42,505 bases of DNA, taken from IMG/VR virus record IMGVR_UViG_3300044676_005109, positions 1 to 42,505 of that record; one strand, 5' to 3'. Of this stretch, positions 6,604 through 41,602 are shown piece after piece. Positions within the stretch are counted from its first letter, which is position 1; each line of letters opens with the position of its first letter. Under the pieces are notes generated by a model. That model saw only the letters and a program-made list of their open reading frames with translations. It was not told the origin of the DNA and did no database searches. The stretch comes from a virus (taxonomy: Duplodnaviria; Caudoviricetes). A program made the position numbers and the translations under genes.

Positions 6604-9288
6604 ATGGAAGATGATACAGAATTCACCTCTGGCAGAGACGAGATATACCCCGGTGCGGCTGGAGATATTCCTATGACTTTTGATGAATACGGTAATGTAA
6701 TACCTGTAGCCGGAGAAGCTGGCGGTGGTAACAGGAATATTCCGGGCGGCGGAGGAACTAATCCTATTACTTATGGCGGCGCTGGGTTTGGTGCTGGACA
6801 AGTTCTGGGCGGTGAGGCAGCTAGAAGACAGCAGGAAATATTAACGGGCAGTCAGTACTCAGCGAATATGCCGCCTCCGGGCTACCGTCCCGGCTTTGGC
6901 CCAGAGTATCTGTACTTCGGAGATCCTCGTTATGAAGATTATGCGGCTCTTCTTCCGGGCGTATATGGTACTGGCTACCAGCCTCCCGGTGTCCCTGCAC
7001 CAGCACCCGGTGCGCCAGCTCCTGTTGTACCAACCCCAACTCCGACACCCACTCCAACACCTGTTGGCGGTGTAGACCCTGTAACCGGGCTTCCCTTATA
7101 TACTGGAGGTGATCTAAGTTTTTCTCAGGCCGATATAGATCGAGCGATGGAGCTTATTATATCGGGCCAGTACGACATCAATTCTCTGGCATCTCAGCTC
7201 GGTGTGCCACAGGAGACCGCTTACAACATTTACAATCAGTATCTGTCTGACACCTATGGTGTGGGCGCATTCGATCCTAACAGACAATATGAAGATCAGG
7301 CTTTACAAGATCTAGCGCAGCAGTACTACGGTGTTGCTAATCAGTATGGCTATAGCCCAGAGCAATTGTCTCGTATCTTCGGTACTCCGCTTGATCAAAC
7401 AAGATCTTACCTATCCCAGCAATACCTTGGTGGCATCCCGGTAGATCAAGACTATACCGCTGATGAGGCGCAGCAGGTCTATGATCTGTACAAGTCTGGA
7501 CGTATGGGTGTTACCGGAATAGCTAACTACTTTGGCATTCCAGAAAGTGAAGCTCTTAATATCCTCAATAGTATTGAAGGAAGCGGAGGTCAGGCTTCTT
7601 CAGTTATTGGCTCTCAGCAGGACATAGATCGCAATTCTCTTATTTCTGAGATGAGGTCTCTCTTCCCTAACATTGAGATGGGCAATCTTACTCCAGAGCA
7701 AAAGCTTACTGTTCGGGAATTGATCAATAAAGGGCTTTACGGAAGTCTTTCTATGGAAGATGCCAGATCTATTTTTGGCGATCTATCCGATGAGTTTACT
7801 GAGGACGATGCAGCTCTCATTGAAAATAAGGTAAAAGGATCTCTTCCGTTATCTGATATTCAGGCTGATGGGGATTACTCTCAGTCTGAGATTGATCAGG
7901 TTTACAGTCTGTACACCTCTGGTAAAGTTTCTGCCCAAGATATCTCCGACTATTTCAACATTCCTGTTAGCGAAGTTAATACTGCTTTGTCTGACATTGC
8001 TCAGAGCAGACGGCAAGTTGCTGCTGGTGGGGTGGGTTCTACTACTGTACCTGCTGAGGATGTGAGAAACACTGCAAGATCTAGCGGGGCCGTTATCTCA
8101 CAAGATGATACTGAGGGGCAGGGCGTCAACCCTATCACCACAGCTATGGATCTTTATTCTTCTGGCGTTGAGATTCCTGCTGATCAGATTAGAGAGACCC
8201 TTGAGTATGCACAAGCAAGGGGCATTTCCTACGCACAGCTAGACCAGATGTTTGGCGCTCCTGCTGGTAGCGCACAGGACGCAGCCGCTGCTCTTGGTAT
8301 GGCTGCTAGTGCTGGCGGTATTGTAGGTATGGCTAAGGGTGGCAAGTTCCCAGACCTCAGCGGTGACGGAGAAGTTACTCAGGAAGACATCCTGATTGGC
8401 CGAGGTGTAATTGAAAAGGCTGACGGTGGATTGCTTGATAAGCTTTCTAAGCTTGATCGAGATCTCAAGGAAGACCGAGAGCAACGACAAGCCGAGAGAA
8501 GGGAAAGGGGCCGCAAGGTCTCCGACTATATCCCTTACCCCAGCTTTCTTGGCGGCGATGTCTACGGCGCACTTGAAAACATAATGTATGACGCCGGTGC
8601 TGGTATAGCTGGTCTGTTTGAGAAGGAAGAAGAACCCAAGCCACAGGGCGGTGCTTTGCTGACCGAGACCGAAAGCTATTTGGAAGCCCAAAGGATATTG
8701 GGAGACGCAGATTCAAGCGACAGAGACAAGGCGTTTGCCAGAGGCACGTTAGAGACTCTCAAGCCTGAGCAGCAGGGCGGCAATATGGATATGAACTCCT
8801 ATTCCGAAATGATGCAGCAGGTGGACAAGATCCTTGGCGCGACTAGGAATATGCAGGAAGGCGGCTACATAGATCGAGACCAGCTAGACAGTCTTATCTC
8901 AATGACCCGTGATGCAATCCTTGGTGATGCCGAGAATGCTGATCAGATCATACAAGCTTTTATCTCTGTGTTTGGTCAGGAAGCTTTTGAGCAGCTTAGA
9001 GATCAAGTACTCCAGTCACAAGTTCCTGATGCACAAACAGAGGGCATAATTGAGGGTTCTGGTGGCGGTATGGATGATGAGGTTATGGGTATGATCGGCA
9101 ACCAGCAAGGTGTGGCCGTGTCTCCCGGTGAGTACATCATCCCCGCTGACGTGGTCTCCTCTCTTGGCGATGGCAGCAGTGATGCTGGCGCTGACAAATT
9201 AGACAGAATGCTTGACGATGTCAGGATGGCTAAGACCGGGCGTACTATTCAGCCCGGTAAGATCGATGACGGGGTTATGCCTGCATGA
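6604..9288 (+). CDS. putative internal virion protein with HTH-like repeats
   Basis: 894 aa, AGGAG RBS; Pro/Thr linker, about five helical repeats, xxGG motifs and C-terminal SPGEYIIPADVVS domain. Confidence 0.7.
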   Translation: MEDDTEFTSGRDEIYPGAAGDIPMTFDEYGNVIPVAGEAGGGNRNIPGGGGTNPITYGGAGFGAGQVLGGEAARRQQEILTGSQYSANMPPPGYRPGFGPEYLYFGDPRYEDYAALLPGVYGTGYQPPGVPAPAPGAPAPVVPTPTPTPTPTPVGGVDPVTGLPLYTGGDLSFSQADIDRAMELIISGQYDINSLASQLGVPQETAYNIYNQYLSDTYGVGAFDPNRQYEDQALQDLAQQYYGVANQYGYSPEQLSRIFGTPLDQTRSYLSQQYLGGIPVDQDYTADEAQQVYDLYKSGRMGVTGIANYFGIPESEALNILNSIEGSGGQASSVIGSQQDIDRNSLISEMRSLFPNIEMGNLTPEQKLTVRELINKGLYGSLSMEDARSIFGDLSDEFTEDDAALIENKVKGSLPLSDIQADGDYSQSEIDQVYSLYTSGKVSAQDISDYFNIPVSEVNTALSDIAQSRRQVAAGGVGSTTVPAEDVRNTARSSGAVISQDDTEGQGVNPITTAMDLYSSGVEIPADQIRETLEYAQARGISYAQLDQMFGAPAGSAQDAAAALGMAASAGGIVGMAKGGKFPDLSGDGEVTQEDILIGRGVIEKADGGLLDKLSKLDRDLKEDREQRQAERRERGRKVSDYIPYPSFLGGDVYGALENIMYDAGAGIAGLFEKEEEPKPQGGALLTETESYLEAQRILGDADSSDRDKAFARGTLETLKPEQQGGNMDMNSYSEMMQQVDKILGATRNMQEGGYIDRDQLDSLISMTRDAILGDAENADQIIQAFISVFGQEAFEQLRDQVLQSQVPDAQTEGIIEGSGGGMDDEVMGMIGNQQGVAVSPGEYIIPADVVSSLGDGSSDAGADKLDRMLDDVRMAKTGRTIQPGKIDDGVMPA

Positions 9289-9716
9289 GCCTACTGGTTA
9301 AACAGATCCTACCGCAGGACATAAGTTCTGTTTGGGATACTGTTGAGCCATTTATAGAGGACGCATTAAAGAAGGGTACGGAGAGCGAAGACTACTCTCT
9401 AGACTACAACTCTTCTCACATCCAGCTCTACTTATCTAAGGGAGAATGGATGCTTTTAGTAGCAATGGATTCCGATGGTCTGATTCGAGGCTGTGCCACT
9501 GTTGCTTTCATTAACTACCCTATGCACAGGGTAGCTTTTATTACTGCTATTGGCGGCAAATTGATATCAAATAAAGAGACATTTGATCAAATGAAAACTA
9601 TCCTTAACAAGTTCGGAGCGACAAAGTTACAGGGCTATGCCCGTAAGTCTGTCGTTAGGCTCTGGGAGCGTTTTGATTTCAAGCCGGTTAATACTCTGAT
9701 CGAGGTGAGAATATAA
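9285..9716 (+). CDS. GNAT-like acyltransferase
   Basis: Size, W.LLV...G.I.GC.T / AFITAIGG / G.AR.SV.RLW.RF.F pattern, and position before an ejection gene. Confidence 0.6.
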   Translation: MSLLVKQILPQDISSVWDTVEPFIEDALKKGTESEDYSLDYNSSHIQLYLSKGEWMLLVAMDSDGLIRGCATVAFINYPMHRVAFITAIGGKLISNKETFDQMKTILNKFGATKLQGYARKSVVRLWERFDFKPVNTLIEVRI

Positions 9717-10726
9717 TGGGCGGTGGCGGCGGCGGTACTACAACCGTACAACAAACTATACAAGAGATCCCAGAACAGTTAGCTCCCTATTATGACGAGC
9801 TACTGGGCCGGGGTACGTTTCAGTCCTTACAACCATACACTCCTTACCCCTATAAAAGGCTGGCTGAGTTCTCTCCATTTGAGCAGCAGTCTATGTCTGG
9901 TATTGGTGCGCTTGCTCAGACCGGGACGCCAGAGGCTATGCAGGCTGCCATAGAAGGAAGTCAGTATGTGGCCTACAAAGACCCCTATGCTGAGGCGATC
10001 AGGCAAGACCCAATCACTCAGGCGATGGTCAACACAATCTCTGCTGCCCAGCCAGAACAGGTGGGTACGTTGGGTGAGGTTGGCACTTACCAAACTTACA
10101 TGAGTCCCTATCAGCAGCAAGTCACAGACATTGCGAAGCGGGAAGCGCGACGAGCCTCTGATATCCAAGGCGCAGAAATAGGTCAACAAGCAGCCCTTGC
10201 TGGAGGCTTGGGTGGCTATAGGGAAGCCATCATGCAGGCTGAAAGAGAGCGCAATTTGGCCCAACAATTGGGCGATATTCAGGTTCAAGGTAGCCAGCAG
10301 GCGTTTGAGTCTGCTCAGAGGGCGTTCGAGTCCGACAGAGCGGCTAGGGAATCCGCTGCACAGTTGGGTATAGCTGGGTATGGTGCGCTTCAAGCAGACC
10401 TTGGACAGCGTGTCAGGGCTGCACAGCAGGCTTCGGACTTGGCTTCTCAGGCTCAAGGAATGGAGCTTGAAAGACTTGCCGCTTTGGAGTCCGCCGGTCA
10501 ACGACAGAGAGGTCTGTTGCAGCAGAGCTACGACATTGGCTATCAGGACTTCCTGCGCCAGCAAGCATTCCCTGTGGAGCAGTTGTCTCTCTACAGCAAT
10601 CTGGTCAGAGGTCTGCCAATGCAGCCCGGAACCACACAAATTCTCTATGGGCAGCAGCCCACAATGGCACAACAGTTGCTCGGCAGTGGCATAGCCGCCG
10701 CTGGTTTATATGGGGCGACTCGTTAG
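9716..10726 (+). CDS. putative DNA ejection/pilot protein
   Basis: MGGGGGGTTT start, YM.PY.QQV motif, Gln/Ala-rich helices and a Gly-rich hydrophobic end. Confidence 0.7.
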   Translation: MGGGGGGTTTVQQTIQEIPEQLAPYYDELLGRGTFQSLQPYTPYPYKRLAEFSPFEQQSMSGIGALAQTGTPEAMQAAIEGSQYVAYKDPYAEAIRQDPITQAMVNTISAAQPEQVGTLGEVGTYQTYMSPYQQQVTDIAKREARRASDIQGAEIGQQAALAGGLGGYREAIMQAERERNLAQQLGDIQVQGSQQAFESAQRAFESDRAARESAAQLGIAGYGALQADLGQRVRAAQQASDLASQAQGMELERLAALESAGQRQRGLLQQSYDIGYQDFLRQQAFPVEQLSLYSNLVRGLPMQPGTTQILYGQQPTMAQQLLGSGIAAAGLYGATR

Positions 10727-12666: not shown

Positions 12667-15600
12667 ATGAAATTTGATTACGAAAAAGCAAGAGAGGCTG
12701 GTTACAGCGATCAACAGATCGCAAGTTTTCTGTCGCCAAAATTAAACTTCAATTTGGAAGACGCCCTCTCTTCTGGCTATCAGTATGAGCAGATAGTTCC
12801 TTTCTTGGTAAACAAATTTGGCGAGGATGATACGAGTGTCCTCGGACAGATTGCAGAAACAGCGAAGGGTGTTCCTCGTGGCTTTGCCAATACCTTTCTT
12901 AGTGCCGGAGAAGGTCTTGCTGAAATGGCAGATGCGGCTACTAACTTCGTTGGGTATGAAGACCTCATAGATTCAGGCGAAGAGAATGAGTTGGTTCGCC
13001 TTGCAAGAGAAGGCAAGGACTATATCAATCAAACTCTGGGTGCAGATGAGCGTTATGAAGACAAATGGCTGACCAAACTCGGTGATGCTGTTGGTTCTTT
13101 TGCTGGGTTCTTTGTACCCGGCGGTGCGCTCAAGGCTGTGGGTGCTGGCTCCAAGCTTATCGGAGGTTCAAGTCTTGCCTTGGCTACAAGTTCTGGTGCT
13201 GGAGAGCAGGCACAAAGAATACAGATGGCCCGTGAGCAGGGCATTGAGGTCAGTCAGGATCAAGAGGATAAAGCTATTGGGCTTGGTGGCCTTATTGGAA
13301 CTAGCGAGGTTCTTGCTCCTCTAAGCCTTCTTAAAAAATTCCGAAGACTACCAGATAAAGAGGCAGATACTTTATTCTCTCAACTGGCTGGTGCTGTAAA
13401 GACGGGCCTTGCTGAAGGCACTCAGGAGGCCACTGCTGGCGCTTTGCAAAGTGCGGTAGAGAAATATACATACAACGAGAACCTGCCCCTTGGCGAGACT
13501 CTTTATGACCAAGTCATAGAGGATGCAAGTCTGGGCGGCGCTGCTGGTGTAATAGCCGACCTTGCTTTGGGCAGCTTTGCCAGAAGGGTGAGGAGCGGTG
13601 CTGCAACTGAGGCAGAATTTGAAAGAGAAAGACAGTTACGCGCAGAGGAAGAGGCGCGTATTGCGGAAGAACGCCAAGCAGTATCAGACTATATAGCGCA
13701 AGAAGACAGAACAAATGCTGAGGCTGTAGTTAATGCCGAAGAAACTCTTATGCTTCCTGCGCCAACCCCAGTTGATCTAAGAACTGACGAGGATCAAGTT
13801 GGGTATGCCAGCAATATATCCAATAGTCTGAACTACAATTTCCCGACTGCCACATCGTTTAGTTTTAGAACAAACGAAATCACTGATCCAGAAACTGGCG
13901 AGATTACTGGCGCTAACTACACTATCGTTGATGATCTTGGTAACACTTACGGCGCTTCTCCTATCACTACCAGAGAGGCGGCGGCTACAGTTGCTGGTAG
14001 ATTAAACGATAAGCTTCTTGATCGAACTCTGAGTCGGTCTATACGGGACACTCTAGAAACTTCCCCAACTTCCTATGATCAAAGAGCCACTGAAACCTTG
14101 CTTCGTATAGGTAACAGGGTTCTGAATCCTAGATCAAACCTGATCACAGATGTAGAGCTTAACGCAGCAGCTACAGAAACTGTTGATCCTCGTGTGGAAG
14201 AGGACAGAAGAAGGCTATACATAGAATCTCTGCCCCTTGATCAGGCTCTTTACTATTTGCAGCAAGGGCCACAGCAGAACAGGGCTAAGAGCAAGGCTGA
14301 GATGATGCGCCTATTGTCTCCAGCTCAGAGGATAAATCTTCGCAGACGCGATCAGGGTCTGCCAGAGACCAAGTTCTTTACTGTGCAAGAGGCAAGAAGG
14401 GAGTTGAAGGATTCTTTTGGCAACCTAGCCAATAAGAAGTTTGAGTCCCCGGAAGTCAGGGAGAAGATTGATCAGTTACAAAATGCTAGGACTTACATCA
14501 ACCCAGAGATAAGTAAGAACATTACACCGGCACAGATACAGAAGCTGCTCAACGAAAAGAACATTGCTTCGGATATCAACAGCCCAGAGATAGATGCTCT
14601 GGCGCGTAGCTTTGTTGGCGTCAAGTCTGTCGCTGACATGAATGTTGGTGACCGCAGAGTATTCTTCAAGAAGATACAGTCCCTCCCTCGTCTAGACGAT
14701 TCTACTAAGCTCCCTGTATTTCAGCTTAAGCCGTTCACCAACGCACAGTTTGTGGCGTCCGTTGAAGCTGTCAATACAACAGGTGATTTCAGCAACGAGA
14801 CTATAGCTGAAGCCGCGCAGATAAAGCCTGATGATCCCAGATATGAAAGCAAGATCGAGTCTATCAGGAAGGAACTCCGTAAGCAGAGAGTAATCCGAAG
14901 CGGAAAGATTCCTGTCTATGACAGAAGGATCAAGGCTGAGGCAGAACAGATCCCCTTGGCAGAAGAGGTTGATACTGTCGTTGAGGAAGAGATTACTCCA
15001 GAGGTTGTTGAAGAAACCGAAGCTCAGGTGGTAAGCCCTGACGTTCTGGAGAGAATACGGTCAAGTTTAAAAAGCTACCTTGATTCAAAAGGACTCAAGG
15101 ATGTAATGCTTAACGTAGATCATTCCCTCAGAAATGTTGTTATGGATGCTGAGGGTAATCTTAGATATGGCATAAGAAGGCGAAGACTTGATGATGAGTA
15201 TGAATCTGGCCCTGTTTCAGATCTTGATACTATTTTTATCAGAGATGAATTTGCTCCAGAAGAATCAGAAGGTTTCTATTCAAGACAAATAAACGGAATC
15301 TTTTTAGCTGCTGACAGGCTTGCCAATTTTGAGGGCATGACCGAAGAGCAAATGCAGTCTGAGCTGGCGTCCATTCTCAACCACGAGATGGTACACGCAA
15401 TGCGTAACCTAGATCTCTGGACTGAAAGCGAGTGGAAAATACTCAGTAATGCGGCTGCTAAGATAAAGAATAATAAAGGTCAAACATATCTTGATGAAGC
15501 AAAAGAATATTACCCAGATGTTATTCCTACTATTCAAGTAGAAGAAGCTGTTGCTAATTTAATTAGAGGAACTATCAACGGCAATACGAAGGTTGGAGGC

Positions 15601-18600
15601 AAGCCAAGAACCTTAATCAATAAGATGTTTGACTTCTTTGAGAGAATATCAAACTTCTTAAGAGGCTCTGGTTACAAAAGTTTCAATGACATACTTGCAG
15701 ATATTGAATCTGGTGTTGTTGGAGGAAGGGAGCGCGGGGTAGTAAGAACCCCGAGAAGGGTTGCAGAGGAAGCTGATCTGGAAAACTTTTGGAATACAGA
15801 CTCTGATATTTCTTACTCAAGAACTAAAGCTCCAAAGAAAACTCAGAAAGCCTACAAGTTATTTAGAATAGATCCTGAGCAACCCGGCAAACTTTTCCCT
15901 CTTTATGTTGACTCAAAGACCCCAGTTCCTATGAGGGAGTGGGTAGCAGCTACGGATGGTGGGTATAGTTTTGTTGCTGATAACGGCAAGAGATACGCTC
16001 CAGCTAAGACAGGTGTATCCAGACCAGTTAGCAGGAAGGTTGCTAAGGAACTTTACAAGCGCGGCTATGTAAAAAGTCCTGACGCAAAAAGCATTACAGC
16101 GGTAGCCTATCGACCCGGATGGCATTCAGGTGACCTGCCTTCGTCTCAACATATAGGTGGCATCAGTGTAAATTCTGTTGGCAGGAAAAAAGACTTTAGA
16201 CAGAACGATCAGGTCTGGGCAGAGATAGAAGTTGCTGACGATAGATCTGACTATTGGCAGGATCTAGCTAACTCAAGAGCGTCCACAGTAAAGTCTGGCC
16301 CTAGAAAGGGAATGCTTAATCTCGGCGAGGCGCATCTTACCAATGAGGGTGAGATACCAAGGGGTGGTTATTATAGATACAAAACCAACCCGGAGATGGA
16401 GGGCAACTGGTTAATTAGCGGCGAGATAAAAATTAACAGAGTTTTGTCTGACGCTGAGGTTAAGAAGTTAAACAGAGACGCCGGTAGAACTCCAGATTTA
16501 CCAAGAATAAAGAAGGGTTTGGGTAACAAGTCAGGCCCAAGATTAGATCCAAGAGATGTCGTTTACTCAAGAAAGAGTGCGCCCAAAGCTGTAAGCAATA
16601 TATTCCCCACAGCTAAGAGGAGAACAGTAGATCCTACAGAGACAGTTCTTGTCAGCGACTTTCAAGAGTACATGAAGGACGCTCCGTTTAAAAAGAATAT
16701 GGAGATCGTCAAGGGCTATGATGATCTTCGCAAGGACAGAAATCTTAGGACTGATGAACAAAAGGCTGTTGCTTTTGTAGATCATATTAAGAACAACCTT
16801 CTTTACTTGTTTGATTCTGTGCCTCCTGATGTTCGCACCAGATCCGCAAAGTGGTATGAGGGCGCTAATAAATTGATGCAGAATCTTGCCGACAAGCACG
16901 GCATAGATTTGTCTCAAGCTTCCGCTCTTGCTGCGAATCTTTCTCCACAGAAAGATTGGTACATGAACGCCAGCCTTGCAGAAAGAACTGCGGATATATT
17001 CTTTGAGAAAGCTGACGAAACTTTCACTCCAGAGATGGAGAAGAAAGCCAAAGAACTCTACATAGATGGAAAGGCTGTTTCTGCCTCGAAGAAAAAGATT
17101 AATCAGAAGGTTCTAGATGGGATCAAAGGCAAGTCTTTGTCTGATCTTATAGCTGAAGATGCCCCTCCTGTCATGCAGGCTATGTGGGTTCGTACTTATG
17201 ATCAAACATATAACAGTCCAAGTTATCGAATTGTTTCTCCAGAAGGTGATTACCTACAGTACGCAAAGAAAAAGGACGGCACTAATGCCCGTGTTGCGTG
17301 GGGATCTTTTACTGAGATAGCAAAAGGCATTAAGGCTCTGTTAGATCCTGACATCAAGTCTGTTTCAACCAGCCTTGGTGAGGCTAACAAAGTAAGAAAC
17401 TTCTACAACAATATCTATGACCCTTCTTCAGAGCTGGGTTTTGTGACGATAGATACTCATGCTGTTGGCGCTGGTCTACTACGCCCTGTGAGCGGCGACT
17501 CAGATCAAGTGAGCGCAAACTTTGGAACTCTTAAGGGTTCTTCCAACAGCTCTATTACTGGATACCGTGGACTCTATCCCTTCTACGAAGAAGCTTACAA
17601 GCAGGCCGCAGCAGAGCGCGGCGTTCTTCCGAGGGAGATGCAGTCTATAACTTGGGAGGCTGTGCGCGGTCTATTCTCTCCATCATATAAAGCCAGTGAC
17701 AAGAATGTTGAGTTTGTCAATAATGTCTGGAGAGATTATAATCGTAAAAAGATTGATCTCGATGAAGCCAGAGAGAGGATATTAAATCATGCCGGACGTA
17801 TCACAGATCCCGACTGGACAAGATCCGATAGTGGAGAGCTTGCGGAAGATGCAACTTCCAGTTACGAGAGCCAACTACCTAGCACTGGCGTACCCGGACA
17901 GACCGGACAACTCCCCGCTGGGGGCGGAAGAAGAGGCGATGTTGCCGCCAGAACTACAGAAGAATCAAACGTCCTAGCGGCGCAGAAATCTGAGGCAACA
18001 AACAGAGAATCGCAAAGGCTCAAGGTCAGGAATCATGTTGATGTTCTTGAGTCCAGAAGATCCCCCGGCTCCGTGGCATCCGCCACTACCTATGAAAACC
18101 TAAAGACAGAAGCAGAGAACAGGGCGTACAACGCCGGTGACTACGCTTCTCCTATGTCTTTTGAGACTCCCACTTACACCTATCAAGAGGCCGGTCTATC
18201 TGGGCCAGCCCGTGGCTTCCTGTATCAGGTGGCTGACAAGTTGCTTGGCCTCAAGATGGTTGAGGATTCTATCAACCGCAACAGAAGGAAGGCGGGGCAG
18301 AAAGAGATACCTACCCTAGCGTCCCCTTACAAAGGCGAGGAGCGCGTTGCTGGCATAGTTGGTGGTAAGGTAAGGGACTTTGATTTAAATGAGCTACAGC
18401 CTTTCGTACAGGCTATGGTTGATAACGATGTCTCTCGAAAGGAGATGGATGATTTCCTAATCCTGAGACACGCCATTGAGCGCAATGCCAGAATCAGGAG
18501 TATCAACCCTGCTATCAGAGAAGCTGGGGCCGGGATGCTAGATGGGCAGGCGCTGACTGACAGCTACGTCAAGTCTAAGATGGCGTCCCTCTACGGTATG

Positions 18601-21075
18601 GAGTGGAACGATGCTACCCGGTCTTGGAAAGGCGGTAATGCCAGAGCGCAAGTTCTGAACTCTCTTGCCAGCCGGTTTGATACCTTCACTCAGGGTACTC
18701 TAAAAGAGCTGCGTGATGGTGGCCTGATCTCTGCTCAAGATTTCAATACCCTGTCCAGATACTATAAGTATTACGCCCCACTCAAAGGCAAAGTGGTTGA
18801 GGACGATGTGTCTTCAGAGCTTTCCCAAGGATCTACCGGGATAGGTGGCAGCTATACCATTGTTGGTCAGGATGTTAAGACCGCTATGGGTAGACAGAGC
18901 GAGGCGTTCTCACCCTTATCCACAGCTATCTCTGACAGAGAAAGGGCTATAGTCAGGTCTGCTAAGAACAAAGAGATTGGTCAGAATCTGGTTCGTTTGA
19001 TACGGGCTAACCCTAACCCAGAGTTCTGGGAAGTCATAGACAAGAACAATCCAATCTACAAGAGAGCGTTCAAGACTAGGTATGTGTACGCTGGTAACGA
19101 CCCATCTATCCCGGTTGGCACAGTTCGATCCGATCTGTCTGGCGTCAAAGACAAGAACGCTTGGTTCAAGAAGAAGATTGTAGAACCTTCTGCGGCATCA
19201 CCTATCCTTCGCAATGATTTGCTTGGCGTCAAGATGGACGGTGAGCAGGTATACATAGATATTCGCGGTGATGACAGGCTCAAGAAATCATTGATGAATC
19301 TTGATGCTGACACTATGGGTTTCCTGACTAAGACTTTAGGAAAGGCAAGTAGGTTCCTGTCCTATGTCAACACAAGTCTCAACCCTGAGTTTGTTGTCGG
19401 TAACTTTGTTAGGGATATACAGACAGCGATAAACAATATCGTTGGTGAGCAGACTATGGCGGGAGGCAAGGCGCTGAACACCAAGGGTCTCAAACGTGCT
19501 GTCGTAAAGGACACTGTACCTAGCATCAAGGACTTCTATAAAGGCTACCGGAATAGTAAGAACAGAACAGCCGAACAGATCAAAGACTTTGATGAGTACA
19601 TAAAGTCCGGGGCCAAGACAGATTGGTTTGTTTCCAGACCGCCAGATCAGGTATCAAGCAACATAGATAACCTGATCGAGATGCAGAAGGGTACGTTCAG
19701 CGGTAGCTTCAGAAAAAGATACGAAGGCGTCAGAGACTTTGTTGATGACATCAACTCTGCTGTTGAGAACGGTGTTCGTTTTGCTACCTTCAAGAAAGCT
19801 AGAGATTTATTTGTTGAGAACGGCGTTCCAAGAGATGAGGCCATAGCTAGGGCGGCAACTCTTGCCAAGAACCTGACCGTAAACTTCAACAGGAAAGGGG
19901 AAGCAGGTAATCTCCTCAACAGTCTCTACATATTCTTCAACGCTTCAGTACAGGGTACGGTCAACTTTGCCCGTGGCTTGAATGTGTTCGACCCAGAGTC
20001 ATCAAGAACCAAGCAGGCTATGGTTGGTTCTATGATTGGGTTCGGTGCTTTGATAGCGTACATGAACTCTATCCTGAGTGATGACGATGAAGAGTCTGAG
20101 CGATCTTATTACTCTCAGATCCCAGCGTTTGAGAAAGAAAGAAACATCATAGTCATGAAGAACATCTTTGATCCTGACGCAGCGCCCGATCAGTACTACA
20201 AGATCCCGTTGCCCTATGGATACAATGTATTCCACGTTCTCGGCACATCCATTATAGATTCTATGACAGGCGCTCAGTCTAAAGAGGAGGCCGCTGCTTC
20301 CTTGGTCACCTCGTCACTGGGTTCTTTCTCTCCTATAGGTTTTGGCACTTCAGATAATTACTTTAACTCTATAGTGAGAGGAATTACTCCGAGTGTCGGA
20401 CAGCCTTTTGTAGAGATACTCGCTAACGAAAACTACTTTGGTTCTCCGGTCTACTCGGAAAGCCAGTACGGTCAGGATATTCCAGCTAGTCAGATGGCAT
20501 TCCGCACTACACCTGAGGTATTCAAGCGGTCTGCCCAGATGCTGAATGCAATATCTGGCGGTGATGAGAGCGAGGCTGGCATTTTAGATTTCTCCCCTGA
20601 CACTATGAATCACCTATTCAAGTTTGCTCTCGGTGGTACAGGAGCTTTTGCTGTAAGAAGTATGAGCGCGTTGGAAAGAGGTCTTATGGATCTTGATGTC
20701 ACGCCTAATGACGTTCCTTTTTATAGGAGGATTGTCGGAGAGGTAAATGACTTCGACCAACAGACAGACTTCTATGACAGAAGAGACACCATTGCTGCTA
20801 AGTACAGACAGTCCCAGATTGAGACAGGTGTAAACAGAAGGAGCTATGCCAGACAGAATAAAGACTATCTGCGGCTTCGACCTGTAATGAACACTGCTGA
20901 AAGAAGAATAAGGGCTTTGAATAAGAGGCTAGATATGTTGCAGCAGAAGGCAGCTAACTCAATGATTGATGCTGTAACTTTCGCCCAAGAGCAGGAGAAG
21001 ATACAGGATGAGAAAGCTGCCATCTACAAGCAGTTTAATCGCAGGTATGATTCTCTTATTGGCAGGAACCAATAA
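12667..21075 (+). CDS. large polyvalent virion protein (zincin peptidase, two effector-like domains, LPD38-like C-terminus)
   Basis: 2802 aa; HEMVH...EEAVA metallopeptidase motif; AYRPGWH domain; LSPQ..W/KVRNFYNNI/VTIDTHA domain; TVNFNRKG, FFNASVQG, IPLPYGY and N.NYFG.PVY C-terminal motifs. Confidence 0.85.
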   Translation: MKFDYEKAREAGYSDQQIASFLSPKLNFNLEDALSSGYQYEQIVPFLVNKFGEDDTSVLGQIAETAKGVPRGFANTFLSAGEGLAEMADAATNFVGYEDLIDSGEENELVRLAREGKDYINQTLGADERYEDKWLTKLGDAVGSFAGFFVPGGALKAVGAGSKLIGGSSLALATSSGAGEQAQRIQMAREQGIEVSQDQEDKAIGLGGLIGTSEVLAPLSLLKKFRRLPDKEADTLFSQLAGAVKTGLAEGTQEATAGALQSAVEKYTYNENLPLGETLYDQVIEDASLGGAAGVIADLALGSFARRVRSGAATEAEFERERQLRAEEEARIAEERQAVSDYIAQEDRTNAEAVVNAEETLMLPAPTPVDLRTDEDQVGYASNISNSLNYNFPTATSFSFRTNEITDPETGEITGANYTIVDDLGNTYGASPITTREAAATVAGRLNDKLLDRTLSRSIRDTLETSPTSYDQRATETLLRIGNRVLNPRSNLITDVELNAAATETVDPRVEEDRRRLYIESLPLDQALYYLQQGPQQNRAKSKAEMMRLLSPAQRINLRRRDQGLPETKFFTVQEARRELKDSFGNLANKKFESPEVREKIDQLQNARTYINPEISKNITPAQIQKLLNEKNIASDINSPEIDALARSFVGVKSVADMNVGDRRVFFKKIQSLPRLDDSTKLPVFQLKPFTNAQFVASVEAVNTTGDFSNETIAEAAQIKPDDPRYESKIESIRKELRKQRVIRSGKIPVYDRRIKAEAEQIPLAEEVDTVVEEEITPEVVEETEAQVVSPDVLERIRSSLKSYLDSKGLKDVMLNVDHSLRNVVMDAEGNLRYGIRRRRLDDEYESGPVSDLDTIFIRDEFAPEESEGFYSRQINGIFLAADRLANFEGMTEEQMQSELASILNHEMVHAMRNLDLWTESEWKILSNAAAKIKNNKGQTYLDEAKEYYPDVIPTIQVEEAVANLIRGTINGNTKVGGKPRTLINKMFDFFERISNFLRGSGYKSFNDILADIESGVVGGRERGVVRTPRRVAEEADLENFWNTDSDISYSRTKAPKKTQKAYKLFRIDPEQPGKLFPLYVDSKTPVPMREWVAATDGGYSFVADNGKRYAPAKTGVSRPVSRKVAKELYKRGYVKSPDAKSITAVAYRPGWHSGDLPSSQHIGGISVNSVGRKKDFRQNDQVWAEIEVADDRSDYWQDLANSRASTVKSGPRKGMLNLGEAHLTNEGEIPRGGYYRYKTNPEMEGNWLISGEIKINRVLSDAEVKKLNRDAGRTPDLPRIKKGLGNKSGPRLDPRDVVYSRKSAPKAVSNIFPTAKRRTVDPTETVLVSDFQEYMKDAPFKKNMEIVKGYDDLRKDRNLRTDEQKAVAFVDHIKNNLLYLFDSVPPDVRTRSAKWYEGANKLMQNLADKHGIDLSQASALAANLSPQKDWYMNASLAERTADIFFEKADETFTPEMEKKAKELYIDGKAVSASKKKINQKVLDGIKGKSLSDLIAEDAPPVMQAMWVRTYDQTYNSPSYRIVSPEGDYLQYAKKKDGTNARVAWGSFTEIAKGIKALLDPDIKSVSTSLGEANKVRNFYNNIYDPSSELGFVTIDTHAVGAGLLRPVSGDSDQVSANFGTLKGSSNSSITGYRGLYPFYEEAYKQAAAERGVLPREMQSITWEAVRGLFSPSYKASDKNVEFVNNVWRDYNRKKIDLDEARERILNHAGRITDPDWTRSDSGELAEDATSSYESQLPSTGVPGQTGQLPAGGGRRGDVAARTTEESNVLAAQKSEATNRESQRLKVRNHVDVLESRRSPGSVASATTYENLKTEAENRAYNAGDYASPMSFETPTYTYQEAGLSGPARGFLYQVADKLLGLKMVEDSINRNRRKAGQKEIPTLASPYKGEERVAGIVGGKVRDFDLNELQPFVQAMVDNDVSRKEMDDFLILRHAIERNARIRSINPAIREAGAGMLDGQALTDSYVKSKMASLYGMEWNDATRSWKGGNARAQVLNSLASRFDTFTQGTLKELRDGGLISAQDFNTLSRYYKYYAPLKGKVVEDDVSSELSQGSTGIGGSYTIVGQDVKTAMGRQSEAFSPLSTAISDRERAIVRSAKNKEIGQNLVRLIRANPNPEFWEVIDKNNPIYKRAFKTRYVYAGNDPSIPVGTVRSDLSGVKDKNAWFKKKIVEPSAASPILRNDLLGVKMDGEQVYIDIRGDDRLKKSLMNLDADTMGFLTKTLGKASRFLSYVNTSLNPEFVVGNFVRDIQTAINNIVGEQTMAGGKALNTKGLKRAVVKDTVPSIKDFYKGYRNSKNRTAEQIKDFDEYIKSGAKTDWFVSRPPDQVSSNIDNLIEMQKGTFSGSFRKRYEGVRDFVDDINSAVENGVRFATFKKARDLFVENGVPRDEAIARAATLAKNLTVNFNRKGEAGNLLNSLYIFFNASVQGTVNFARGLNVFDPESSRTKQAMVGSMIGFGALIAYMNSILSDDDEESERSYYSQIPAFEKERNIIVMKNIFDPDAAPDQYYKIPLPYGYNVFHVLGTSIIDSMTGAQSKEEAAASLVTSSLGSFSPIGFGTSDNYFNSIVRGITPSVGQPFVEILANENYFGSPVYSESQYGQDIPASQMAFRTTPEVFKRSAQMLNAISGGDESEAGILDFSPDTMNHLFKFALGGTGAFAVRSMSALERGLMDLDVTPNDVPFYRRIVGEVNDFDQQTDFYDRRDTIAAKYRQSQIETGVNRRSYARQNKDYLRLRPVMNTAERRIRALNKRLDMLQQKAANSMIDAVTFAQEQEKIQDEKAAIYKQFNRRYDSLIGRNQ
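17789..17977 (+). CDS. overprinted 62-aa protein nested in the +1 frame of the polyvalent gene
   Basis: AGAGGA RBS 9 nt before the ATG; globular-looking product, while the host frame over the same bases is a low-complexity linker. Confidence 0.65.
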   Translation: MPDVSQIPTGQDPIVESLRKMQLPVTRANYLALAYPDRPDNSPLGAEEEAMLPPELQKNQTS

Positions 21076-30476: not shown

Positions 30477-31472
30477 TTAAGCGGCCTGCTCAACCGCATC
30501 ATTAGTGTTAGGTAGCCCGGTCATGAAGTTGCTAGGGTATGAAGTGTTACCCTCTTCATCGACTACAGGCTGGAAGCTGTGCAGGAATGCAGCAGCTTTC
30601 TGAGCCTTGCCAGCAGCCTTGAAGAATAGATTCTCATCATTCTCCAGAGCCTTGATCCAGCTCGCCAGATACTGGGCGTGGTCAGGTGCTGGCGTATGCT
30701 CTATGCCGAGGTCAGCAGTCATGAATATTGCTGTCAACTCAGCGGTGAGTTCCTCGAACGCATAATTCTCAGTGGTGCGCTCATAGATCTCCGGGCGATT
30801 GAGGCGTGACTTGTTGCCCGTCCAGTGGCCCTCCTCATGAAAGAGAGTGCCGTAGTATTTCACCAGCTTTTCTTCTGGAGTATCGCCAATGAAGTCTTCT
30901 GGAGCAGGCATCACAATGTAGTCCGCGATGGGCTTGTAATAAGCCTGCGGGCTTCCGGGCTTGACCCTGATGTCAGCGCCAGTGTTTGCAATGAAGTCTT
31001 CAACATCTTGAAGCCTCTGCAACTCAGTGCGCTCCTCACCTTCAGACACTACAGGCTCAAGGCCGACTTGCTCTGCATTCCAGAGAGCCACTGCCCGGAA
31101 GAACAGCCCGGTCTTCTGGTTACCATTCTTATCCAGCTTGGGCTTACCTTTGCTGTCTTTCAGCTTCGTAGGCATAGGCGTCAGGACATAGGCGGTAGCC
31201 TTCTCACCCTTGGGGACAGGCGTGTCGGTAGACTCCCAGCCCTTGTAGGTTGACCAGCGGGTGTCGGTGAACCCGTGCTCCTCTGCTGCTATCCAGAGTA
31301 GGAACACGTTGCCGCCAGTGTATACGTTGCCGGTGACGCAGTTATGGTGAGCGCCGTTGGCAATCTGTCCAGCCCAAGGCTTGACCCAGCCAGTACCGTG
31401 AGTTTTCATCTGCTCCAGCACCTTGCGGGTGAGGTCAGCGCGAGGGTTGCGTTTAACTTTTGATGTAGCCAT
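30477..31472 (-). CDS. ardC: ArdC-family antirestriction protein (ssDNA-binding domain plus zincin-like domain)
   Basis: W.KPW, N.VTG..Y.G.N..LL, W.TYK.W, KGEK, AYY.P..D.I.MP, YY.TLFHE.GHWTG..RLNR, YAFEEL.AEL, HA.YL.SW. Confidence 0.92.
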   Translation of the reverse strand: MATSKVKRNPRADLTRKVLEQMKTHGTGWVKPWAGQIANGAHHNCVTGNVYTGGNVFLLWIAAEEHGFTDTRWSTYKGWESTDTPVPKGEKATAYVLTPMPTKLKDSKGKPKLDKNGNQKTGLFFRAVALWNAEQVGLEPVVSEGEERTELQRLQDVEDFIANTGADIRVKPGSPQAYYKPIADYIVMPAPEDFIGDTPEEKLVKYYGTLFHEEGHWTGNKSRLNRPEIYERTTENYAFEELTAELTAIFMTADLGIEHTPAPDHAQYLASWIKALENDENLFFKAAGKAQKAAAFLHSFQPVVDEEGNTSYPSNFMTGLPNTNDAVEQAA

Positions 31473-31519
31473 TTTTCTCGTCTCCAAATCAAGAATGTCA
31501 AAGTGTAAAGGTTTGTCAA

Positions 31520-32008
31520 TCAAGCTGCAAGTTTGGCATCACTGCCCCACTTGCAGCCGGTGCGAAAGGTTATGACGCGCACACTGTGCGCTCCAGCAAG
31601 GCCGTTACCGCTGCCCGCTGTGCAGACCCAAGCCGGGGCCAGCTCTTGGCGCTCACTGAGGCCCAGCTTACGCTGTACTGTGGAACGCTTGCCGATGGGA
31701 ATGAAGGCGCGACCGCCAGTGAGGTGCTGATCGCAATCATCAATCAGCCAGACTGACCCGTACTGACCATTGACGATCTTGGCTCTAACGCGAGTGTCGC
31801 CAGAGTACAGCCCGGTGAAGGTATCGAAACCTTCCTGCCTGCAGATTCGGGCCTTCTCTTGGTTCAGGCCAGCGGTAATACCACTGGCCCACTGCGAGAC
31901 AAACCCGTCAGTGTCGCACCGCTCAAATGAGTCGCTGGCTTCCTGAAGGTTTTGAGAGGCAGCAGCCTCATATCGTGCAGCCTCTGCTGCGAAGTCTTTG
32001 ATTTCCAT
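31520..32008 (-). CDS. hypothetical phage early protein
   Basis: 162 aa, GAGG RBS; SFERCDTDGFVSQWA motif. Confidence 0.75.
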   Translation of the reverse strand: MEIKDFAAEAARYEAAASQNLQEASDSFERCDTDGFVSQWASGITAGLNQEKARICRQEGFDTFTGLYSGDTRVRAKIVNGQYGSVWLIDDCDQHLTGGRAFIPIGKRSTVQRKLGLSERQELAPAWVCTAGSGNGLAGAHSVRVITFRTGCKWGSDAKLAA

Positions 32009-41218: not shown

Positions 41219-41602
41219 ATGAGCGAAGCTGCTACGGTTGAGGTTGGTTCTGTTGAGGCAGATACAAAGCCTTCTCAGTTACCTGAGCCTACTGGATACA
41301 AGATATTAATCGCGCTGCCTGAAGTTGATGAAAAGACAGAGGGCGGAATCATTAAGGCACAAGAAACAATGCACCTTGAAGAGGTGGGTTCCATTGTGGG
41401 ATTTGTGATGAAGCTTGGCCCGGATGCTTATGAAGACAAAAAGAAGTTCCCTAACGGTGCTTATTGCAAGGAAGGGGATTTTGTTTTGATGAGGTCTTAT
41501 TCTGGGACTCGGTTCTCGATACACGGGAAAGAGTTCAGGCTGATTAATGACGATAGCGTTGAGGCTGTTATTGACGATCCAAGAGGCATTAGGAAGGTAT
41601 GA
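41219..41602 (+). CDS. groES: co-chaperonin GroES (Cpn10)
   Basis: P.GYKILI, EKTEGGII, G.V.K.GP.AY, K.GD.V, YSGT and RLINDD.V.AV. Confidence 0.9.
   Translation: MSEAATVEVGSVEADTKPSQLPEPTGYKILIALPEVDEKTEGGIIKAQETMHLEEVGSIVGFVMKLGPDAYEDKKKFPNGAYCKEGDFVLMRSYSGTRFSIHGKEFRLINDDSVEAVIDDPRGIRKV

Follow-up and report, generated by a model that had tools for sequence, protein, structure and literature searches.

Can an effector domain in the middle of a giant phage protein keep its antidote in the same stretch of DNA, as a second gene read out of frame just behind it? The question is raised by IMGVR_UViG_3300044676_005109, a 42.5-kb virus record (Duplodnaviria; Caudoviricetes) with terminase, portal and primase-helicase genes, which was analysed over its whole length of 42,505 nt (the window). 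Close strains of this phage come from estuary and marine metagenomes. A sequence-only reading of the window had singled out a 62-aa ORF in the +1 frame of a giant polyvalent protein gene, and had proposed that it is an overprinted immunity gene for the glycosylase-like domain that precedes it. The product of this ORF is referred to below as peptide A.

The giant gene and its DUF7178 domain

The giant gene (Table 1) is the third and final large gene of a likely ejection-protein block, and to judge from this position its product is likely to be packaged in the virion and injected. The text of PMC5512222 describes phage polyvalent proteins as giant and multi-domain, with LPD38 as a marker of the phage type, and proposes their delivery at infection; the words 'glycosylase' and 'overlap' do not occur in its main text. 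The window protein is likewise giant and multi-domain and carries LPD38, and its relatives add ART-PolyVal, InPase and LPD22. Also seen in its sequence are a metallopeptidase-like HEMVH (HExxH) motif at aa ~905–915 and, immediately before the glycosylase, an unnamed module (aa 1143–1281) that matches phrog_30118. Elsewhere, this phage genome carries an ArdC-like anti-restriction gene with ArdcN and MPTase-PolyVal domains (nt 30477–31523, minus strand), a Lipase_3 gene in the structural region (nt 885–1658) and a GroES-like gene after the portal gene (nt 41219–41602).

Table 1. Positions of the features discussed in the text (nt of the window unless another reference is given)
Feature	Position	Strand	Remarks
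Match to PHROG 4287 'DNA ejection protein'	9716–10726		Upstream of the giant gene; PHROG E 8.5e-13
Giant polyvalent protein gene (host frame)	12667–21075	+	2802 codons/aa; DUF7178 and LPD38 domains
DUF7178 (PF23802) domain	16600–17820	+	Host aa ~1312–1718; Pfam E 1.4e-22
Invariant Lys (K264 of the domain)	17389–17391	+
VTIDTHA motif	17443–17463	+	Invariant Asp (D285) at 17452–17454
Shine-Dalgarno AGAGGA of the nested gene	17774–17779	+	Within codons of the domain's final helix
Nested gene (peptide A)	17789–17977	+	62 aa; ATG start; frame +1 relative to 12667–21075
Invariant last Trp of the DUF7178 domain	17815–17817		Overlapped by the small ORF
Host-frame linker, G/S/A/R/P-rich	17821–17977	+	Reads through the small gene
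LPD38 domain	20110–20721	+	Pfam PF18857; E 1.2e-36
Different +1 ORF of A-lacking loci	L059 ~+688; L125 ~+700; L130 ~+610; L150 ~+613		nt after the domain end
Nested family linked to the 'EAFAQ' motif	L008:4026; L015:5365; L065:5773; L029:2171; L061:2459		0-based segment starts

The DUF7178 domain (model pLDDT 89.8) is predicted to have an HhH-GPD DNA glycosylase fold. Its best fold match was Thermotoga Ogg (3n0u; Z 8.9, rmsd 3.8, 186 residues aligned), followed by queuine salvage enzymes of DUF2419 (Z 8.4 and 8.3) and AGOG (Z 7.8), values that can be generic, as for any helical protein below Z 13; glycosylase-fold entries made up 20 of the top 23 matches. Foldseek with the domain model returned nothing at E <= 0.001 (AGOG at a probability of 0.60), the domain sequence had no match in PDB or PADLOC, and no paper on DUF7178 was found. 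Two residues, K264 and D285, are invariant in 41/41 domain sequences. By analogy, the former is likely the catalytic lysine of HhH enzymes and the latter, within VTIDTHA, the catalytic aspartate. From the nearest folds, and from these only, the substrate may perhaps be a derivative of guanine. A scan for a surface that might bind the peptide compared 10 domains lacking peptide A with 63 bearing it; the sites lost most were H62, K64, Y380, E339 and W377, a hint only (p about 5e-5 to 2e-4 over 390 sites, with statistics that ignore kinship).

A conserved gene nested behind the domain

The ORF has the properties first ascribed to it: the ATG at nt 17789 is preceded, with a 9-nt gap, by the AGAGGA ribosome binding site, and the peptide and host-frame stretches quoted earlier both match the sequence. 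Its placement needs correcting. It does lie directly behind the domain that contains VTIDTHA, although it begins about 10 codons before the domain end and not exactly at it, and the VTIDTHA motif itself is ~330 nt upstream of the ATG. The ORF is unremarkable by itself, since a stop-free +1 window of 46 codons occurred in 24/208 control windows.

Conservation is more telling. Among the best 80 of 504 matches to the domain, 79 loci were obtained (38–87% identity), giving 80 with the window, and a profile found peptide A in 73 of these (window included; E <= 4.2e-15). An in-frame ATG is kept in all 73 and the position directly behind the domain, in +1 register, in 72. The host frame runs through the small gene in 53 of the 73 and stops before it in 20. 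The remaining seven loci comprise one truncated, one with a deletion and five that lack the peptide. Mean Shine-Dalgarno (SD) pairing was −7.2 at 38 small-ORF ATGs (−8.2 in the window), whereas 424 control +1 ATGs averaged −2.0 (p 5e-20), and in most loci the SD and the first codons overlap the end of the domain.

Selection was proposed to act on the nested frame rather than on the host frame, and the comparisons bear this out. Pairwise identity among 30 nested representatives was 0.43 in the small frame and 0.25 in both the host and third frames, in an alignment built on the small frame, a choice that favours it; nucleotide identities at codon positions 1, 2 and 3 of the small frame were 0.57, 0.63 and 0.40. 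Gly10 of peptide A is conserved as a reflection of the host Trp codon, and the frame tests leave it out. Pooled pN/pS over 11 hand-chosen close pairs was 0.27 for the small frame and 2.06 for the host frame, and the small-frame value was below 0.5 in 10 of the 11. The exception is the pair of the window with L007, where the short-range signal is reversed (1.27 small, 0.49 host). Close strains from four runs have six variant sites, and at five of them the small protein changes whereas the host-frame protein does not, so that purifying selection on the small frame is not apparent at this range; two of the changes to the small protein fall in the stretch shared with the domain end, and none creates a stop. 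One RNA run (X20) gave a single contig, which ends at nt 17599, before the small ORF begins.

Taken together, these data make it almost certain that the ORF is a real nested gene. The term 'overprinted' is likely the wrong way round, since constraint acts on the small gene, which also exists in free form, while the host linker that reads through it is unconstrained; of the two, the linker is likely the secondary frame. Strict de novo overprinting, in which a new frame arises on an older conserved host frame, is not the pattern observed, on a tree that is midpoint-rooted only. Within the window's own giant gene, no other nested gene passed the two-frame screen.

Linkage of peptide A to the domain

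Searches seeded with the peptide gave the association that had been predicted, with matches behind the same domain in both nested and free-standing form. A first such search added 34 viral loci, 33 of which have the domain directly upstream while one is cut by the contig start. A motif scan for peptide A, covering 80 of 141 viral and 80 of 88 metagenome matches, added 159 loci. Of these, 108 are nested, 15 are free but adjacent to the domain and 1 is displaced; 28 have no domain on the same strand, and in 7 the upstream sequence is too short. Within the viral set the domain is adjacent to peptide A in 79/79 loci, many of them on contigs already met in the preceding scans. Of the 28 loci without a same-strand domain, one (L330:3004–6153) has the domain on the other strand, with the two genes convergent, tail to tail; the lone copies thus number 27 of the 80 metagenome loci. 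Among 42 genome loci with the domain, 24 have an adjacent peptide A (3 of them weak) and 18 have none by profile; profile iteration over the genome loci adds L146, and several others have diverged +1 ORFs by eye.

Nested and free states interleave on a midpoint-rooted tree of 82 representatives (85% identity), of which 44 are nested and 19 free, the other 19 having no match, in a set that mixes domain- and peptide-seeded loci and is biased towards presence. The proposal that domain and small gene travel as a movable cassette is likewise borne out: the flanks of the nested cassettes sort into 19 unrelated groups on the downstream side (37 sequences) and likewise into 19 on the upstream side (39 sequences). 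In four loci (L105, L123, L134, L152) peptide A follows the host stop in other frames. In L078, an in-frame insertion of a ~145-aa domain separates the glycosylase from peptide A, which then follows the host stop, and L081 carries nearly the same peptide adjacent to its glycosylase. The arrangement also occurs in a cultured phage, LS06-2018-MD07 (OP947163.1, L159), where an unannotated nested copy at nt ~7000–7240 (profile E 4.5e-6) lies within the CDS of a giant 'methyltransferase' (WBK39883.1).

Some domains are without the peptide. Lys and Asp motifs are intact and peptide A is absent in 5/80 domain-seeded loci and, by profile, in 18/42 genome loci; two such records, with a completeness of 100% and 94%, are devoid of a copy over their whole length. 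Two of the three GenBank phage records with the domain (the cultured phages CRP-738 and zth2-2) lack it, and one contig, L035, which was set aside, shows an apparent deletion that removed the domain end and the peptide start. Four A-lacking loci (L059, L125, L130, L150) have an unnamed domain of ~200 aa after the glycosylase and then a different +1 ORF with an SD (Table 1). In L040/L043, L077/L079, L137, L143 and CRP-738, also A-lacking, no substitute +1 ORF was found.

Properties and relatives of peptide A

The model of peptide A has four short helices (pLDDT 73) and no fold match, and an Atlas search gave scores <= 0.80 with TM <= 0.45. The C-terminal half is acidic; the mean net charge over 38 sequences is −5.3, residing mostly in residues 36–57. 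A profile search gave 22 matches, and exhaustive phmmer over representatives at 50% identity gave 110 relatives, from which the repeat protein P0054 was rejected as a chance match; a word-index protein search with the single peptide gave no candidate. Pfam, NCBIfam and PADLOC contain no family to which peptide A could be assigned, and PHROG gave one weak match, restricted to 2/38 members. Tandem duplicates within one polypeptide are seen in P0042, P0046 and P0067, and P0132, a single sequence, is an in-frame fusion of the domain end with peptide A.

Lone copies and other nested genes

The frames of all 27 lone copies are intact and 26 have an ATG, while the former host frame is interrupted in 26. 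Their neighbours include a tRNA and an IS element, an integrase, ordinary cellular genes and, on small replicon-like elements, AAA_25 and HTH_36 genes; the contigs are of 1–6 kb, so that the domain could lie elsewhere in those genomes. Further cellular genomes yielded no lone copy: 400 from one phylum had no match, and of 200 from one genus the single genome that matched peptide A also has the domain. In 9 of 35 domain-less or short loci, peptide A is beside or fused to one or both of two other small modules, B and C. These arrays and fusions (L198:413–1131, L181:221–1020, L175, L179, L182, L185, L186, L188 and L197) are without cargo and occur on small elements, several of which carry AAA_25 and/or HTH_36 genes.

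Modules B and C are themselves nested genes. In viral loci, B is nested in the +1 frame in 30/32 (L332–L363), the other two being cut by contig ends, and C in 15/15 (L364–L378). Each sits behind different cargo, in the same phage gene slot as the A-type cassettes: the next genes after the slot are 77% identical between A and B loci and 89% between B and C. This slot with exchangeable cargo is seen in related freshwater-type phages, as distinct from the window's own lineage. Small-frame conservation again exceeds that of the host frame (0.74 vs 0.54 for B, 0.89 vs 0.82 for C). The hosts of B carry a domain distantly related to the glycosylase (hhalign 74%, E 3e-6) and a second domain for which no PDB sequence match was found, and the last domain of the C hosts resembles the post-glycosylase domain of the A-lacking loci L059, L125 and L135 (53%, E 2e-5). 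C-host cargo was also considered as a glycosylase; motifs were seen by eye only, profile comparisons were not significant, and such an assignment is not claimed. Peptide A was not found in the B and C loci (0/47), no B or C was found in the A-type loci searched, and none of the three peptides matches a Pfam family.

A survey of alternative frames behind other polyvalent-protein domains had been suggested. Besides B and C, there is a further +1-nested family of ~70 aa. This family lies behind a domain with an 'EAFAQ' motif, upstream of the glycosylase (Table 1), with identities of 0.44–0.48 in the small frame and 0.25–0.27 in the host frame. The giant genes that carry it have two nested genes each.

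Alternative explanations

The tight linkage would be explained equally well if peptide A were a positive partner of the domain, such as a folding chaperone, an activator or a packaging adaptor, and the one natural fusion of domain end and peptide (P0132) would suit such a partner. A helper is useless without its client, yet 27 intact copies stand alone and some are fused with the nested genes of other cargo, and a positive role is considered unlikely. Somewhat less likely again is a small gene with an unrelated job, tied to the domain by the overlap of the two and carried along with it for that reason. An overlap of SD and first codons with the domain end is indeed usual, but the linkage persists where there is none (L105, L123, L134, L152, L078 and L330), and the mutual absence of peptide A and modules B and C from each other's loci also speaks against a chance passenger.

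Very improbable is a programmed +1 frameshift at the domain end, producing a shorter protein that ends in the peptide, without any separate gene. The fixed +1 register and the fused P0132 would agree with it; the universal ATG, the strong SD enrichment and the copies that lie past the host stop in other frames, behind an inserted domain or on the opposite strand do not, and on account of these copies peptide A is regarded as a separate gene. Ugi and p56 are inhibitors of uracil-DNA glycosylase, and peptide A, being small and acidic, might be an inhibitor of a host repair or defence glycosylase that merely adjoins the phage enzyme. Little credence is given to this either, as it would leave unexplained both the complete viral adjacency and the lone copies among cellular and plasmid-like genes.

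Relation to known systems

The closest parallels are toxin–immunity systems. A small ORF follows 89.4% of 191 MuF phage toxin genes and is read as immunity in the account of PMC5576092. As at the present locus, those toxins are phage-encoded variable cargo domains followed by a small ORF; unlike them, the cargo here is often internal and is a predicted glycosylase, the small gene has an out-of-frame, nested position, and Pfam detected no MuF domain either in the window protein or among 27 scanned host proteins. Polymorphic toxins, as presented in PMC3482391, share an N-terminus and a slot for exchangeable cargo, while polyimmunity loci consist of small genes in tandem on the same strand, some fused, without a toxin and in some cases near recombinase genes. 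The shared N-terminus, the exchangeable slot cargo and the toxin-free tandem or fused small genes, some of them close to recombinase genes, are features in common with the present case, in which the donors are phage virion-module genes and not the bacterial secretion systems covered in that text.

Nested partners are also known. In lambda, the Rz/Rz1 spanins are encoded by a small gene embedded in a shifted frame and their products interact (see 10.64898/2025.12.20.695498), although these are cooperating lysis membrane proteins and involve neither enzyme nor inhibitor. The same preprint reports that in Synechocystis Slr0489L/S the product of the out-of-frame nested gene binds the protein made from the host frame, whose growth inhibition it neutralises. 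This resembles the pair proposed here in having an out-of-frame nested gene for a neutralising partner; it differs in that the proteins are small chromosomal membrane proteins, not phage-borne, and no mobile enzyme cassette, free-standing form or orphan array features in the available description. The arrangement had been put forward as undescribed; given Slr0489L/S, this can hold at most for a phage polyprotein and not for nested antitoxins in general. A literature search, with subscription papers and supplements outside its range, found no description of nested or overprinted immunity genes in phage polyvalent proteins.

With regard to the enzyme, Dag1 is a defence HhH glycosylase reported to destroy phage DNA carrying modified guanines (10.1101/2025.10.29.685425). 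Ogg/AGOG, QNG1 and Dag1/Dag2 share the fold predicted for DUF7178. Dag1/Dag2 are host defence genes for which that report, as available, describes no partner, while the DUF7178 domain is phage-borne and of ~400 aa with insertions. In sum, embedded genes (Rz/Rz1), a nested neutralising partner (Slr0489S) and phage toxin–immunity pairs (MuF) are already known from these sources, and to these the present locus adds a small gene tied one-to-one to an enzyme domain, the coexistence of free and nested states, and the orphan arrays.

A probable built-in inhibitor

The genomic pattern suggests that peptide A probably inhibits the predicted DNA glycosylase domain that it accompanies. Of the built-in immunity gene originally envisaged, the gene itself, the selection on it, its linkage, the cassette and the nested and free forms are all observed, while immunity is a reading of that pattern; it has gained support from lone, duplicated, fused and arrayed copies and from two more nested genes behind other slot cargo. 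The reading is favoured because exchangeable cargo with its own small genes, together with toxin-free arrays and fusions, constitutes the pattern of polymorphic toxins and polyimmunity loci. As in toxin–immunity systems, the small gene lies behind its cargo and moves with it across contexts, each exchangeable slot cargo has a small gene of its own, and orphan, tandem and fused copies of the candidate immunity gene occur, on contigs that are short.

Late in infection, ribosomes would start internally on the mRNA of the giant gene. The small acidic protein so produced would bind the newly made enzyme and, up to the time of packaging, prevent it from acting on the DNA of progeny and host. Injection into the next cell would deliver the enzyme free of its inhibitor, and it could then excise bases from the DNA of the host or of a rival phage. 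Where the domain is at the end of its protein, the small gene would simply be the next gene downstream, with an overlap; where the protein continues with further domains, the host frame would read through the small gene as a linker. Other elements may keep lone copies of peptide A as protection.

A wider picture can be drawn more tentatively, with slightly less than even confidence. Polyvalent and ejection proteins may be strings of injected toxin cassettes, joined by G/S/R/P-rich linkers that read through hidden +1 immunity genes; DUF7178 domains would be glycosylase weapons delivered by virions, and satellite- and plasmid-like elements would collect and fuse the matching immunity genes as a shield against phages.

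If the inhibitor reading is true, an unannotated domain family and three unnamed small-protein families would acquire a role, and the problem of how an internal effector domain keeps its antidote would be solved. It would also supply a rule for recovering effector–inhibitor pairs that gene callers miss, namely to read the +1 frame behind each domain. The proposal, in the text of PMC5512222, that polyvalent proteins are injected conflict weapons would become testable with a 400-aa domain and its 62-aa partner.
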